The notes under the pieces: generated by a model | The model's database searches: none | What the model was told of the DNA's origin: nothing | What the model saw: only the letters and a program-made list of their open reading frames with translations | Made by a program: the position numbers and the translations under genes | Shown: in pieces, positions 2-23,044 of the stretch | Numbering within the stretch: position 1 is the stretch's first letter | Layout: each line of letters begins with the position of its first letter | NCBI GenBank assembly: GCA_021683455.1 | Contig: GCA_021683455.1_3051.3 | DNA from: a phage | Strand: one strand, 5' to 3' | DNA: 29,205 bases

Positions 2-427
2 ACGCGTGAAGAAGCTATTAAATGCGAGTTATATTATCAACGATTGCATGATGCAGTTAAAAATCCATTATTCTTTAATATGTCATATGCTGCTCCAGAA
101 GGTTCATTTGGAAGAGATAATAAAGGACAAAATCATCCATTATATGGTTCTCATAATTGTAAAGGAAATATACATTCACATGATCCATTAACAGGAAAAT
201 CTGCCTTTTTGCCTTATATTCCAGAAGGTTATGTAAAAGGAAGGTCAAATAAATTTAAAGCTTCATCACATAATAAAGGTAAAAAATGGTATAATAACGG
301 AGTTAAGCAAATGTTATGTCATGAACCTCCTGGTCCTGAATGGACAAAAGGAAAAATTAAAGAACTGGTTTCAAAAGCAGCTAAATTAGGATGGAAAAGA
401 CACCATGAAAATACTAAACTTGGGTGA
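2..427 (+). CDS. 5'-truncated ORF of unknown function; C-terminal region carries motifs reminiscent of homing-endonuclease linker/DNA-binding modules
   Basis: Frame is open from window start (first in-frame codon at 2); the ORF-track start at 44 is a TTG. Motifs GQNHPLYGSHN and KGKKWYNNG resemble repeated modules of phage GIY-YIG/HNH homing endonucleases (recalled from memory, not searched). Overlaps gene 47 start by 23 nt. Confidence 0.35.
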   Translation, partial: TREEAIKCELYYQRLHDAVKNPLFFNMSYAAPEGSFGRDNKGQNHPLYGSHNCKGNIHSHDPLTGKSAFLPYIPEGYVKGRSNKFKASSHNKGKKWYNNGVKQMLCHEPPGPEWTKGKIKELVSKAAKLGWKRHHENTKLG

Positions 428-11103: not shown

Positions 11104-11844
11104 ATGATTAGTGACTCTATGACAGTTGAAGAAATCCGTCTTCATTTGGGGCTTGCATTAAAAGAAAAAGATTTCGTAGTTGATAAAACTGGTGTTAAAA
11201 CTATTGAAATTATTGGCGCATCATTTGTAGCAGATGAACCGTTTATTTTTGGCGCTCTTAATGATGAATACATTCAGCGCGAACTTGAATGGTATAAATC
11301 TAAGAGTTTGTTTGTTAAAGATATTCCAGGTGAAACACCGAAGATTTGGCAACAAGTAGCATCTTCTAAAGGCGAAATTAACTCGAATTATGGTTGGGCT
11401 ATTTGGTCAGAAGATAACTATGCCCAGTATGATATGTGTTTAGCTGAACTTGGTCAAAACCCTGATTCTCGACGTGGTATCATGATTTATACTCGTCCAT
11501 CCATGCAATTTGACTACAATAAAGATGGTATGTCAGATTTCATGTGTACTAATACAGTACAGTACCTGATTCGTGATAAGAAAGTCAATGCAGTAGTAAG
11601 CATGCGCTCAAATGACGTGGTCTTCGGATTCCGTAATGATTATGCATGGCAAAAATACGTATTAGATAAATTAGTATCTGATTTGAATGCCGGCGATTCA
11701 ACTCGTCAGTATAAAGCAGGTTCTATTATATGGAATGTTGGAAGTCTTCATGTATATTCTCGTCATTTTTACTTGGTTGATCATTGGTGGAATACTGGCG
11801 AAACTCATATTGTGAAAAAAGACTATAAAGGTGAGTGGAAATGA
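11104..11844 (+). CDS. 42: dCMP hydroxymethylase gp42
   Basis: 246 aa, the T4 gp42 length; thymidylate-synthase-like fold with candidate catalytic Cys in FMCTN. Confidence 0.9.
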   Translation: MISDSMTVEEIRLHLGLALKEKDFVVDKTGVKTIEIIGASFVADEPFIFGALNDEYIQRELEWYKSKSLFVKDIPGETPKIWQQVASSKGEINSNYGWAIWSEDNYAQYDMCLAELGQNPDSRRGIMIYTRPSMQFDYNKDGMSDFMCTNTVQYLIRDKKVNAVVSMRSNDVVFGFRNDYAWQKYVLDKLVSDLNAGDSTRQYKAGSIIWNVGSLHVYSRHFYLVDHWWNTGETHIVKKDYKGEWK

Positions 11845-12683
11845 TTCAATTCGTAATTCCAAGTTATCAGCGTGTCGGGGCAGTTTCTGCCCTTGATATG
11901 TTTCCGACTGATTATGAACCCCATATTGTAGTGCGTGAACATGAAGAAAAAGCTTATTATGATGCCTATGGGTCTAGAGCTAAAATTATAACTATTCCTG
12001 ATGATGTAAACGGAATTGCCGGTACTCGTAAAGCAATTACTGATATGTATGCAGGTCAACGAATCTGGATGATTGACGATGATACTACTATTCGTATGAG
12101 TTCAATGCGAAAAAGAGATGACCGTCGTTGTGTAGATAAAGTCAATCAATTGACTCATGAACAGTTCTATGAATTGATTCAATACGTCGAAGATGCCATG
12201 GATTGCGGGTATTATCACGGTCATGCTCGCCTACCAATTTTTAAAATTACTTCATCTTGGGGTAATTATCGTGAAAACTCATATGGATTCACGAATACAT
12301 GGTATGACCTCGGAAAACTTACGACAGAACAAATTGGGTATGGAAAAATTGATTTGTGCGAAGATATGTATGCATTTCTCAATTTAATTAATCAAGGTTA
12401 TCCGCATTTGGCCTTGTTCAAATATCTGGTTGTATCTGGAAAAGCACAAGCTCCTGGCGGGTGCAGTTCAATTCGTAGTAATTCTAAACATAATAGAGCG
12501 CTTGAGCAAATCAATAGAGAGTTTCCAGAGCAAGCTCGTTGGAAAACTTCTAATATTGAAAAACGAAAATCGTTGGGTGAAGAAGACGAGCCATTAAAGG
12601 TTCTTCGCATGTGTGTTTCACGTAAAGAAAAATCAGAAGCATTTCATAAGTTTAATGCTATTCATCCAATAGCAGTTGATTAA
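11841..12683 (+). CDS. Putative DNA-sugar glycosyltransferase (GT-A/GT2-like), occupying the locus where T4 carries beta-glucosyltransferase
   Basis: 281 aa from ATG 11841 (ATGA overlap with gene 42 stop); N-terminal FVIPSYQR and acidic WMIDDD (DXD-like) motifs typical of GT-A fold transferases; does not resemble T4 beta-gt as I recall it. Confidence 0.55.
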   Translation: MIQFVIPSYQRVGAVSALDMFPTDYEPHIVVREHEEKAYYDAYGSRAKIITIPDDVNGIAGTRKAITDMYAGQRIWMIDDDTTIRMSSMRKRDDRRCVDKVNQLTHEQFYELIQYVEDAMDCGYYHGHARLPIFKITSSWGNYRENSYGFTNTWYDLGKLTTEQIGYGKIDLCEDMYAFLNLINQGYPHLALFKYLVVSGKAQAPGGCSSIRSNSKHNRALEQINREFPEQARWKTSNIEKRKSLGEEDEPLKVLRMCVSRKEKSEAFHKFNAIHPIAVD

Positions 12684-16276: not shown

Positions 16277-16570
16277 ATGAAAAAATTTATTTTTGCTACA
16301 ATTTTTACTTTGGCTTCTTGTGCTGCTCAGCCTGCTATGGCAGGTTATGATAAAGATTTGTGTGAATGGTCTATGACTGCAGATCAGACTGAAGTTGAAA
16401 CTCAAATTGAAGCGGATATTATGAATATTGTTGAGCGCGATCGTCCTGAAATGAAAGCTGAAGTGCAAAAACAACTTAAGTCTGGCGGTGTAATGCAGTA
16501 TAATTATGTTCTGTATTGCGATAAAAACTTTAATAACAAAGATATCGTAACCGAAATCACAGGTGAATAA
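16277..16570 (+). CDS. sp: Spackle-like periplasmic protein (superinfection exclusion / lysozyme inhibitor)
   Basis: 97 aa with a cleavable signal peptide (MKKFIFATIFTLASCAAQPAMA); length and position match T4 sp (61.3). Confidence 0.6.
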   Translation: MKKFIFATIFTLASCAAQPAMAGYDKDLCEWSMTADQTEVETQIEADIMNIVERDRPEMKAEVQKQLKSGGVMQYNYVLYCDKNFNNKDIVTEITGE

Positions 16571-16571
16571 T

Positions 16572-17204
16572 ATGATTTATTATATGCACAAAAATCCACC
16601 GTTTAAATACGGTAAATTTCCTGGTGCACAATGTTATAATATAACGCCTGATGAAAATAACCGTGGATATCTTATTGGCACAATTTTTGTAATTGTTAAA
16701 GATAACGAAATCGTTGCCTGGGCAGATTTTAAAGGTACAACATATGATGTTAATCCGGTGCCTTTCACATATTACAATTTAATGGATTTGGCATACGATT
16801 ATAATTGGTTTAATCATGACACGTTGGCTCATATTGAAGGTGTAGGATTTGACATCTCTTATTCTAGCTACTCATTGTGTCCTATGAGTCGGGCTCATAA
16901 AGAACCTGAATATTTTTCATTTAGGAAACGTGTAAACTTTAAACGCAACACAGAGCATGTCGGTGGAATCTTTGTTAAAGATAATCGAATTACTCGCATT
17001 ATTTATCCTTTGGGCTGTGGTCAAAAAGATATTGATGTTGATTTAGACTTTACTGAAAACATCATTAATCATATTGCTTCTGTGTATTTTGGTATCGATC
17101 ACAAAATTGTAATATGTGGATATGAATTACCGTTTGAAGAACAGTCTAAAGTAAATGTTTCTATTGACGATCAAATTTTTAATGCTTTTATGAATAAAGG
17201 TTAA
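16572..17204 (+). CDS. Hypothetical protein (position of T4 61.2); C-terminal tail shared with the next ORF
   Basis: 210 aa from ATG 16572; ends ...SIDDQIFNAFMNKG. Confidence 0.55.
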   Translation: MIYYMHKNPPFKYGKFPGAQCYNITPDENNRGYLIGTIFVIVKDNEIVAWADFKGTTYDVNPVPFTYYNLMDLAYDYNWFNHDTLAHIEGVGFDISYSSYSLCPMSRAHKEPEYFSFRKRVNFKRNTEHVGGIFVKDNRITRIIYPLGCGQKDIDVDLDFTENIINHIASVYFGIDHKIVICGYELPFEEQSKVNVSIDDQIFNAFMNKG

Positions 17205-17208
17205 TATG
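17160..17208 (+). repeat. Direct repeat copy 1 (3' end of the 61.2-position ORF plus stop/start junction)
   Basis: About 46/49 nt identical to 17518..17566, including CAAATTTTTAATGCTTTTATGAATA and GGTTAATATG. Confidence 0.7.
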
Positions 17209-17562
17209 TATAGTTCTGAATTTTCATATTTAAAAATGGAAAAAATTTCATACGATTTTATAGATGAAAAGGTTTATTACAGTTTCCATGAACCACGTTT
17301 TAATAGTGAGGTTGGGTTTATTGTAGTAAAAGACAATTTCATTTTAAAGATATATTCGGCATTAAAGGATTTTCACTACGAAAATATTAACCTAAAATTT
17401 GATAAAGAAAACGTTCGTAATTGCGCAGTAACAATTACAGGAAATAAAGGCACATGTGTTATGCTATCTGATGAAATTAATGATTTGCTAAATGATGCCG
17501 AAAAGGTTGCTATTCCATCTATTGATGACCAAATTTTTAATGCTTTTATGAATAGAGGTTAA
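17206..17562 (+). CDS. Hypothetical protein (position of T4 61.1); C-terminal tail shared with the previous ORF
   Basis: 118 aa; ends ...SIDDQIFNAFMNRG. Confidence 0.55.
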   Translation: MYSSEFSYLKMEKISYDFIDEKVYYSFHEPRFNSEVGFIVVKDNFILKIYSALKDFHYENINLKFDKENVRNCAVTITGNKGTCVMLSDEINDLLNDAEKVAIPSIDDQIFNAFMNRG

Positions 17563-18759: not shown

Positions 18760-18956
18760 ATTAACCCAACTAAAGCAAATGCTAAATCTACAAATGTATC
18801 AAGAGTAACTACTGGAATATTAATACCATGCGCAATTGCAACAGGTGATAGAATAAAGTTCCAGAGTAAAATTCCTACCATAGCAGAAATAGTAAAAGCT
18901 ATACGTTTCTTATTACCTTTGATGGCATTAACAAGTGCCATTAATTTTTGTACCAT
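18756..18956 (-). CDS. Small hydrophobic membrane protein encoded antisense to the early gene block
   Basis: 66 aa; on the minus strand a strong SD (AAGGAGG) lies 4 nt upstream of the ATG; stop overlaps the gene 61 stop (TTAA, convergent). The only minus-strand ORF with a credible ribosome-binding site. Confidence 0.5.
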   Translation of the reverse strand: MVQKLMALVNAIKGNKKRIAFTISAMVGILLWNFILSPVAIAHGINIPVVTLDTFVDLAFALVGLI

Positions 18957-18968
18957 ATGTCCTCCTTA

Positions 18969-18993
18969 TTGCTTTATATATTTATTGTATAAT
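18969..18993 (+). promoter_or_regulatory. MotA-dependent middle-type promoter upstream of gene 56
   Basis: MotA box TTGCTTTA (18969..18976), 11-nt spacer, TATAAT (18988..18993). Confidence 0.5.
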
Positions 18994-19027
18994 TAATCTA
19001 CTAACCCATGAATTGAAAGGAAAAATA

Positions 19028-19546
19028 ATGGCTTACTTTAACGAATGTGCTCATTTGATCGAAGGTGTTGATAAAGCAAATCGTGCATATGCTGAGAATA
19101 TTATGCACAATATTGACCCACTGCAGGTTATGCTTGATATGCAGCGGCATTTACAGATTCGTTTGGCTAATGATAAACCAGAAACAAATCGTCATCCTGA
19201 TTCACTTGAAACTGCAGGAGAAGTTCTTGCTTGGCTGCGAAACCAAGACGATTATATCGCAGATGAAACTCGCGAACTATATACTTCTCTTGGTGGTATG
19301 AGTAATGGTGAAAAAGAAGCTTCTGCTGTATGGAAACCTTGGAAGAAACGTTATTCTGAAATGCAATCCAAGAAAATTCAAGATTTATCTCCCGAAGATC
19401 AGCTTGAAATTAAATTTGAACTGATTGACCAATTTCACTTTTTCATGAATAAATTTATTGCTCTTGGAATGTCAGCTGAAGAAATCTTTAAACTTTATTA
19501 CCTGAAAAATGCTGAAAACTTCGCTCGTCAAGACCGAGGTTATTAA
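19028..19546 (+). CDS. 56: dCTP pyrophosphatase gp56 (MazG-like)
   Basis: 172 aa from ATG 19028 (GAAAGGAAA SD); MazG-type motif LETAGEV; N-terminus MAYFNECAHLIEGVDKA resembles T4 gp56. The ORF-track start at 18935 is an upstream extension through the promoter. Confidence 0.85.
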   Translation: MAYFNECAHLIEGVDKANRAYAENIMHNIDPLQVMLDMQRHLQIRLANDKPETNRHPDSLETAGEVLAWLRNQDDYIADETRELYTSLGGMSNGEKEASAVWKPWKKRYSEMQSKKIQDLSPEDQLEIKFELIDQFHFFMNKFIALGMSAEEIFKLYYLKNAENFARQDRGY

Positions 19547-19740
19547 TGGTTCGTTTAAATAAGCGTCAGCTTAAGAAAGCCCATAAGAAACGTATTGACC
19601 AGCTATTTAAAGATTATAACAAGGAGCTCGTATGTGAGCTCTTAACTAATCAACTTCGTATGGTTGAAGTTATAGAAGGTCCTGACGAAATTTTTGTCAG
19701 TGAAGAAGCTTTAAAATTAATTATAGAGCATTCAAAATGA
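19546..19740 (+). CDS. Small hypothetical protein (soc.2-like position)
   Basis: 64 aa; ATG overlaps the gene 56 stop (TAATG). Confidence 0.5.
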   Translation: MVRLNKRQLKKAHKKRIDQLFKDYNKELVCELLTNQLRMVEVIEGPDEIFVSEEALKLIIEHSK

Positions 19741-19946
19741 AATTTGATTTCTACGCGTGGCAAAAAGCCGGGAGACCGGCTACTCGAGCATTTGGTTCTG
19801 ATGGATATAATATTAGAGCTCATTGGAAATTTAATGCTCCAGAAGATTATTCTCCGGTAATTATTAACGGTGATGTTGTTATATTAACTAAAATCGGATA
19901 TTTTAACGTTCCGCGAGAATTTATTATAAATAATTATGTAATTTAA
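19737..19946 (+). CDS. Small hypothetical protein (soc.1-like position)
   Basis: 69 aa; ATGA overlap with the upstream ORF. Confidence 0.5.
   Translation: MKFDFYAWQKAGRPATRAFGSDGYNIRAHWKFNAPEDYSPVIINGDVVILTKIGYFNVPREFIINNYVI
19925..19932 (+). promoter_or_regulatory. T4 late promoter upstream of soc
   Basis: Exact TATAAATA, about 30 nt upstream of the soc ATG; the only exact match I found in the window. Confidence 0.5.
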
Positions 19947-22420: not shown

Positions 22421-23044
22421 ATGATTATTAATCTTGCAGATGTTGAACAGTTATCTATAAAAGCTGAAAGCGTTGATTTTCAATATGATATGTATAAAAA
22501 AGTCTGTGAAAAATTTACTGACTTTGAGCAGTCTGTTCTTTGGCAATGTATGGAAGCCAAAAAGAATGAAGCTCTTCACAGACAGTTGAATAAAATCATT
22601 AAAAAGCATTTAACTAAATCGCCTTATCAATTATATCGTGGTATATCAAAATCGACAAAAGAACTTATTAAAGATTTACAAGTTGGAGAAGTGTTTTCAA
22701 CGAACAGGGTAGATTCATTTACTACTAGTTTGCACACAGCATGTGGTTTTTCTTATTTTGAGTATTTCACTGAAATAATTTTTCGCTTAAAAACTGATAA
22801 AGCTTTTAATTATTCTGACCATATCAGCGATATTATACTTTCTTCTCCTAATACTGAGTTTAAGTACACGTATGAAGATACTGACGGGTTAGATTCAGAA
22901 AGAACTGATAACTTAATGATGATTGTGCGTGAACAAGAATGGATGATTCCAATTGGAAAGTATAAAATAACTTCTATTTCAAAAGAAAAATTACACGATT
23001 CATTTGGAACATTTAAAGTTTATGATATTGAGGTAGTTGAATGA
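22421..23044 (+). CDS. modB: ADP-ribosyltransferase ModB
   Basis: 207 aa, the T4 ModB length; R-S-E motifs of mono-ADP-ribosyltransferases (LYRGIS, FSTNR, EQEWMIP); GGAGG SD; own early promoter. Confidence 0.7.
   Translation: MIINLADVEQLSIKAESVDFQYDMYKKVCEKFTDFEQSVLWQCMEAKKNEALHRQLNKIIKKHLTKSPYQLYRGISKSTKELIKDLQVGEVFSTNRVDSFTTSLHTACGFSYFEYFTEIIFRLKTDKAFNYSDHISDIILSSPNTEFKYTYEDTDGLDSERTDNLMMIVREQEWMIPIGKYKITSISKEKLHDSFGTFKVYDIEVVE

Follow-up and report, generated by a model that had tools for sequence, protein, structure and literature searches.

An endonuclease gene at the 47.1/47 junction

The window (the whole stretch of phage DNA analysed, 29,205 nucleotides) very probably opens inside a free-standing Seg-type GIY-YIG homing endonuclease gene that is inserted between 47.1 and 47 of a T4-like coliphage, and whose product, by analogy with known systems, would cleave and home. 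In frame 2 of the + strand, no stop codon interrupts the window's sequence before the TGA at 425–427; the 141 codons that precede it translate to TREEAIKCELYYQRLHDAVKNPLFFNMSYAAPEGSFGRDNKGQNHPLYGSHNCKGNIHSHDPLTGKSAFLPYIPEGYVKGRSNKFKASSHNKGKKWYNNGVKQMLCHEPPGPEWTKGKIKELVSKAAKLGWKRHHENTKLG. This stretch (2–427) was the 3′ two-thirds of the gene (residues 67–207 and the stop codon). The complete ORF has 624 nt and 207 codons, for example in phages REP2 (L001:3804-4427) and PaulHMueller (L002), and codons 1–66 precede the window. The fragment was 99.3% identical to the REP2 protein over residues 67–207, and the missing N-terminus was read from REP2 (MKKYITYLTIYSGDKLPPFYIGSTSLDRHLAGYHGSV...).

The initial annotation, made from the window alone, had described a truncated ORF at the edge with two short motifs and a 23-nt overlap with the start of gene 47. 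Both motifs were found to be encoded (GQNHPLYGSHN at 125–157, KGKKWYNNG at 275–301), and the overlap spanned 405–427, since the gene 47 ATG is at 405. It had also proposed that extension upstream would recover the N-terminal catalytic domain, and phages 99% identical to the window did supply an N-terminus with a GIY-YIG catalytic domain.

The fragment matched PHROG 10820 (E 4e-55). With the full protein, the same family was matched at 1e-94, and phrog_314, the general ‘homing endonuclease’ family, at 5e-18. The full protein had 170 homologues at E ≤ 1e-3 in a database of 5.8 billion proteins; in many of them only the first ~110 residues were common, followed by NUMOD3 repeats. The identity to REP2, the PHROG 10820 match and the 170 homologues argue that the ORF is a real gene and no chance reading frame. 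Of 599 phage records returned by a megablast search with positions 1–1500 of the window, almost all from Tequatrovirus, the ORF part was covered in only 73. The ORF was complete in these, under labels that ranged from ‘HNH endonuclease’ and ‘putative homing endonuclease’ to ‘hypothetical protein’. The reading frame was intact and 97.6–100% identical in ~68 records. No paralogue was found within the window, and the other 207-aa ORF there (22421–23044) was unrelated.

Catalytic domain and class assignment

The full protein had a single Pfam match, GIY-YIG (PF01541, residues 4–84, E 3e-4), with a score of 21.4 bits, just under the gathering cut-off of 22.6 bits; T4 SegA itself passed this model with 37 bits. 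When 42 diverse homologues were scanned one by one, GIY-YIG was detected in 13 (E ≤ 0.01) and NUMOD3 in 20. In the alignment of these 42 sequences, Y33, S39, E75 and N92 were invariant, and Y7, T9, Y11, G13, Y20, I21, G22, S23, G35, K40 and R68 were at least 90% conserved. The ‘GIY’ motif of the first strand, upstream of the window and read from REP2, was present as the variant Y-I-T-Y-L-T-I-Y; the ‘YIG’ motif of the second strand, also upstream, was present as F-Y-I-G-S-T. The window itself encoded the C-terminal end of the catalytic domain (2–100, + strand), including its last helix and catalytic residues. These were Glu75 (codon GAG, 26–28), the predicted metal-binding catalytic glutamate, and Asn92 (codon AAT, 77–79), which by its position is probably the counterpart of the conserved GIY-YIG asparagine (I-TevI Asn90). 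Position 27, which may correspond to the conserved arginine of the helix after YIG (I-TevI Arg27), was Arg in this protein and Lys or Arg in most displayed relatives, with less than 90% conservation.

A profile of the family aligned with T4 SegA (probability 94.5%, E 7.9e-8), including the Y-I/Y-G...G-Y-x-G-S and D-V-V-x-x-P...N motifs. T4 SegF had no detectable similarity to the same profile in hhalign. The overall hhalign match with the I-TevI catalytic domain (query identical to 1ln0) was not significant; in the local alignment of that match, Glu75 paired with I-TevI Glu75. Sequence searches of the PDB with the protein and with the family profile returned nothing meaningful, so the link to I-TevI comes from fold comparison only, and an NCBIfam search returned noise only. 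The AlphaFold model, built on the alignment, had pLDDT >90 for residues 1–95, in the order strand-strand-helix-helix-strand-helix. The modelled domain had the GIY-YIG fold, a three-stranded antiparallel sheet with flanking helices. The only meaningful Foldseek matches in the PDB were to GIY-YIG nucleases, and the top three were chains of the I-TevI catalytic domain.

Taken together, the Pfam match, the conserved residues, the SegA profile match and the predicted fold place the protein among the Seg-type GIY-YIG nucleases, which makes the ‘HNH’ label wrong. Given the sub-threshold Pfam score, membership of the GIY-YIG family rests on the motifs, the catalytic residues, the fold and the link to SegA. 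The initial annotation had left open an HNH (Mob-type) homing endonuclease, the label carried by PHROG 10820 and by many GenBank and RefSeq phage records. This identity was refuted by the Pfam result (GIY-YIG as the sole match, no HNH family at E ≤ 1), by Foldseek matches that contained no HNH structure, and by the profile homology to T4 SegA. In addition, the protein had no H-N-H motif, and T4 MobB lacked both short motifs searched. We regard an HNH enzyme as next to impossible here, and the GIY-YIG assignment corrects a widespread mis-annotation.

Linker and C-terminal modules

Residues 96–120 were poorly ordered in the model. Beyond residue 120, β-hairpins were predicted at residues 123–136 and 161–172 and a terminal helix at 186–201; strands 161–164 and 169–172 had a pLDDT of ~93. 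The motif GQNHPLYGSHN (125–157, + strand) lay in a flexible linker with a pLDDT of ~50. Its first ten residues aligned to G-x-N-N-P-x-Y-G-K-x-H-S-E-E of relatives, the point at which Pfam starts a NUMOD3 unit, and the helix that follows in the NUMOD3-bearing relatives was missing from this protein. The motif is accordingly a degenerate remnant of a NUMOD3 unit start, no longer a module. The second motif is part of a KGKKWYNNG...PGPEW unit (275–343, + strand) with the consensus KGxxWxNNG, modelled as a β-hairpin and presumed to bind DNA. This unit of ~30 residues was kept in close relatives and occurred twice in one homologue (P0067). The pattern W-x-x-N/D-G was found in 35 of 120 homologues and was absent from T4 SegA, SegF and MobB. 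The unit may represent a previously undescribed DNA-binding module.

The initial annotation had compared both motifs to nucleotide-binding (NUMOD) modules. The comparison held for GQNHPLYG, which aligned to NUMOD3 starts in paralogues. It failed in that no NUMOD family matched the protein (Pfam, E ≤ 1) and KGKKWYNNG matched no Pfam model at the same threshold. Pfam also revealed no recognisable helix-turn-helix or zinc-finger domain. The C-terminal modules were conserved across genera.

Insertion site and overlap with gene 47

The downstream neighbour is gene 47 (405–1424, + strand), which encodes the Mre11/SbcD-like recombination nuclease subunit and differed from T4 gp47 at 3 of 339 residues. 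In T4 the order is a-gt, 47.1 (141 nt) and gene 47, with no ORF between them, and the 47.1 stop codon overlaps the gene 47 start codon (ATGA). Aligned to T4, REP2 had a clean insertion of 601 nt at the gene 47 start codon, with both flanks near-identical. The ORF takes the ATG that starts gene 47 in T4 and that overlaps the 47.1 stop, and gene 47 of the carriers starts at a second ATGAAAA inside the last codons of the ORF. A 7-nt direct repeat thus flanks the insertion. The right copy of ATGAAAA is at 405–411 (+ strand; placed by the REP2/T4 alignment), and the left copy is the ORF's own start, outside the window. As a result, the last seven codons and the stop codon of the ORF overlap codons 1–8 of gene 47 (23 nt, 405–427, + strand). 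Overlaps of the same kind were found in homologues from Klebsiella (17 nt), Dhakavirus (14 nt) and Aeromonas (23 nt) phages.

The ORF was free-standing and transcribed in the same direction as its neighbours, and its start codon was coupled to the 47.1 stop. In a scan for promoters and terminators, promoter-like sites were fewer than in shuffled sequence, and no terminator-like site was found on the coding strand. Upstream of the window, a region identical in T4 (L001 3625–3668) contained a GGGC-UUCG-GCCC hairpin after a-gt, followed by TAGCTTTA, 12 nt and a TATAAT that overlapped the 47.1 start codon. By eye, the arrangement resembles a T4 MotA-dependent middle promoter that could serve the ORF and gene 47.

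Distribution and alleles in Tequatrovirus

The initial annotation had proposed a free-standing, 5′-truncated homing endonuclease as a variable insertion beside gene 47, and a comparison of the junction among related phages. The GIY-YIG domain and the absence of the ORF from T4 support this proposal, and the ORF was missing at the exact site from most Tequatroviruses as well. It was present in ~67 of ~550 Tequatrovirus records (~1 in 8) and absent from ~482 (~88%).

Carriers differed from T4 by four synonymous substitutions in codons 3–6 of gene 47 (positions 413, 414, 419 and 422 of the window, + strand; gene 47 nt 9, 10, 15 and 18), with ATT TTA AAT TTA in T4 and ATA CTA AAC TTG in the carrier. 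The next difference from T4 in gene 47 was at nt 114. The cluster of four changes departs only modestly from chance expectation (p ~0.08 with a uniform nucleotide model, ~0.02 with a codon model). Gene 47 of ORF-less phages is the presumed carrier of the homing site, and the codon 3–6 cluster is a candidate for an altered, self-immune target site. Two short diagnostic queries were run over the ~550 Tequatrovirus records of the phage collection; the counts are records, not independent phages. The ORF-type codons were found in 76 records, 67 with the ORF and nine without it, and the T4-type codons in 474 records, 473 without the ORF and one with it. Because the two sites are tightly linked, and linkage alone gives co-segregation, this association by itself is no proof of function. 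Pattern scans of IMG/VR yielded six ORF-less junctions, all T4-type and too few for an allele table, and no ORF-carrying junction.

The nine ORF-less records with ORF-type codons were BCPEco_001, BCPSen_003, PBM-1, Ec_YwIITB1, SHFML-26 (two records), UGKSEcP1, UGKSEcP2 and EPIMAM01. These hybrids occurred on two different gene 47 backgrounds and shared the ORF-linked C at −105 in 47.1, which was found in none of six T4-type ORF-less sequences. The simplest reading would be that these phages lost the ORF precisely, by way of the ATGAAAA repeats, and kept the carrier codons. The only ORF carrier with T4-type codons was ERS-1 (L012, PP337211), a record of 175 kb marked ‘UNVERIFIED_ORG’ with scattered 1-nt indels, possibly the product of chimeric or error-prone assembly. 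Should the record be genuine, self-immunity would not require the four changes. Since single-base indels occur throughout this assembly, its broken ORF is no evidence of decay. An apparent deletion of the ORF in KNP1/KNP5 was rejected, since the gap consists of 99 consecutive N and the record is unverified.

Homologues in other genera and lateral movement

Homologues 50–72% identical to the Tequatrovirus protein were located directly upstream of gene 47, most of them overlapping it, in Klebsiella phage SmallBear, Dhakavirus QL01, Mosigvirus AV116, Winklervirus LC53 and Aeromonas Biquartavirus L9-6, so that the same insertion site was occupied in six genera. A member of the family 45–48% identical was found upstream of a different conserved gene, that for topoisomerase, in Yersinia phage TG1, which also speaks for lateral movement. 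The initial annotation had viewed the ORF as a mobile insertion typical of T-even mosaicism. The presence/absence polymorphism bears this out; with relatives at the same site in six genera, the insertion is not merely a recent T-even event. Across genera, ORF identity tracked gp47 identity (51–72% versus 52–76%), which makes long residence at the locus plausible. The tracking is equally compatible with prolonged vertical inheritance accompanied by losses and with repeated homing.

Within Mosigvirus, AV116 (with the ORF) and RB69 (without it) were ~99% identical through a-gt.4 and unrelated between a-gt.4 and gene 47. In gene 47, nt 1–360 were 60–73% identical and nt 361 onward 90–100%. The 5′ end of gene 47 of AV116 was common to only six of 218 records. 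The foreign stretch (L019 1678–3160, against L023 1699–2520 in RB69) replaced a-gt.3 and a-gt.2 of RB69; it started where a-gt.4 ends, took in the ORF and reached nt ~360 of gene 47. With a divergent gene 47 5′ end and near-identical flanks, the ORF is thus at the centre of a sharply bounded foreign block. A donor of this block was not found among the lineages compared, where the best match for the gene 47 5′ end was 70% (Serratia phage LC53). By these comparisons the block shows lateral transfer of the ORF. The endonuclease gene also explains why a mosaic boundary falls locally within the 5′ part of gene 47.

Other variable loci

Between gene 42 and uvsX, a position at which T4 has beta-gt and the homing endonuclease gene segA, the window encoded a 282-aa ORF (11835–12683) with a Pfam TAGT (TET-associated glycosyltransferase) match (E 1e-9). 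The T4 beta-gt and SegA proteins had no tblastn match anywhere in the window, and no match in the window was found for T4 dam methyltransferase or segF. In the region 18935–19925, gene 56 (dCTPase), in T4 the immediate neighbour of segF, was 69% identical to T4 in protein and ~75% in DNA, between flanks of 87–97%. At 16563–17562 the window also encoded a full-length AdfA (anti-DarT factor, T4 61.2; Pfam E 2e-136) and, directly after it and roughly at the position of T4 61.1, a 118-aa ORF that matched only the C-terminal half of AdfA (E 2e-8). The shorter ORF may be an incomplete duplicate or a paralogue that has diverged.

Several relatives carried other homing endonuclease genes nearby: REP2 between gene 46 and rpbA (L001 7553–8266, − strand), PaulHMueller between rpbA and gene 45 (L002 8190–9077), and SHFML-26 just after 46.1 (L015 2981 onward). 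The window had plain 46, 45.2, rpbA and 45 in this region, without these genes. No record in the phage collection was better than ~97% overall to positions 1–25000 of the window. The best matches spanned 29–30.5 kb for the 25 kb query, and the window therefore derives from a mosaic Tequatrovirus with several kb fewer insertions here than its nearest sequenced relatives.

Proposed homing cycle and alternative readings

By analogy with I-TevI and T4 SegA to SegG, the following cycle is proposed; homing and exclusion behaviour have been reviewed for I-TevI and T4 SegB, SegE, SegF and SegG (PMC2988022, PMC2993671). In a mixed infection, the enzyme would bind the uninterrupted 47.1/47 junction, or the first gene 47 codons, of an ORF-less phage, as a monomer and through its C-terminal modules. 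The tethered GIY-YIG domain would then make a staggered double-strand break nearby. Phage recombination would repair the break off the carrier genome, by which the ORF and flanking markers would be copied into the recipient. The carrier itself would be protected because the insertion splits the site and codons 3–6 of gene 47 are recoded by the four synonymous changes. Marker exclusion, which the initial annotation had suggested for mixed infections, would be expected from the same analogy.

Two other accounts of the gene differ in what it does today. It could be a nuclease gene that has long resided in the gene 55 to 47 region, passed on mostly by vertical descent and repeatedly lost, and that is kept for a benefit to the phage, such as the exclusion of competitors or action on host or satellite DNA, and not by active homing. 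The homologues directly upstream of gene 47 in six genera and the parallel identities of the ORF and gp47 agree with this account, as do the overlap with gene 47 common to three genera (a ...H/N-E-N... tail over MKI) and the ORF-less genomes with ORF-type markers on both sides, which look like precise deletions. However, ~88% of Tequatrovirus records dispense with the gene, and the sharply bounded foreign block in Mosigvirus shows lateral transfer. Long persistence, loss and re-invasion are also predicted by the homing cycle, so that this account, which we consider unlikely as an alternative, differs from homing in emphasis and does not exclude it. It is still less likely that the ORF is a decaying, catalytically dead relic that now serves only as a spacer or translational context for gene 47. 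Such a relic would agree with a NUMOD3 region that is degenerate relative to paralogues, with the lack of a recognisable DNA-binding domain and with the existence of several ORF-less derivatives. It is at odds with a frame that has stayed intact at 97.6–100% identity in ~68 records, with the preservation of all conserved GIY-YIG positions, and with C-terminal modules that are conserved across genera and modelled with confidence; moreover, the KNP1 gap consists of N and the apparent ERS-1 frameshifts lie in an indel-rich assembly.

The active homing endonuclease thus remains the preferred reading. A further-reaching form of it, to which we give little credence at present, is that the family is a distinct, ancient Seg-like lineage dedicated to the gene 47 start. 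This lineage would have gone through cycles of invasion, precise loss and re-invasion in at least six genera of Straboviridae, with WYNNG...PGPEW hairpins in place of NUMOD modules, and precise loss would leave resistant sites. The target, gene 47, encodes the Mre11-like nuclease that resects the very breaks that homing needs. On this reading, cutting the gene 47 start of a competitor could transiently disable its recombination nuclease, giving exclusion beyond drive.

Comparison with known systems

The element is of a known kind: dozens of Seg-like GIY-YIG genes have been tallied in genomes related to T4 (PMC2993671, Table 5), and the ORF already appears as a putative homing endonuclease in some deposited records. 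In literature searches, no paper was found on the protein or on an endonuclease at the 47.1/47 junction. Noteworthy features are the wrong HNH label, a constant placement at the start of gene 47 in six genera, the natural alleles that lack the ORF and seem resistant, and a hitherto undescribed C-terminal module. The work adds a putative Seg-like endonuclease for which a clear-cut empty site, a candidate for a resistant allele and derivatives lacking the ORF are all available. As a natural series, these lend themselves to the study of how homing endonucleases come and go in T4-like phages, and some of the phages are easily obtained from the BASEL collection. Practical value is modest, and no new kind of system is implied.

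Like T4 SegA, with which it shares a homologous catalytic domain, the ORF is free-standing, transcribed in the same direction as its neighbours and patchily distributed among T4-like phages. Unlike segA, which lies between uvsX and beta-gt, it occupies the 47.1/47 site. SegA also has a Pfam-detectable NUMOD3 and a different C-terminus, whereas the protein described here has the WYNNG/PGPEW hairpins that are absent from SegA. I-TevI is encoded by a group I intron (T4 td), and the ORF is not in an intron; in contrast to I-TevI, with which it has no significant sequence similarity, its product has no detected zinc finger or helix-turn-helix. The closest parallel in expected biology is with SegF and SegG, for which intronless homing and localized marker exclusion have been described (PMC2988022, PMC2993671), although SegF has no detectable profile similarity to this family. 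As in those systems, the neighbour of the endonuclease gene is essential, the presumed target is in that neighbour's coding sequence in ORF-less phages, polymorphism beside the insertion would mark resistant and sensitive alleles, and flanking DNA would be co-converted. Cleavage and exclusion are demonstrated for SegF and SegG; for the present protein they are inferred.
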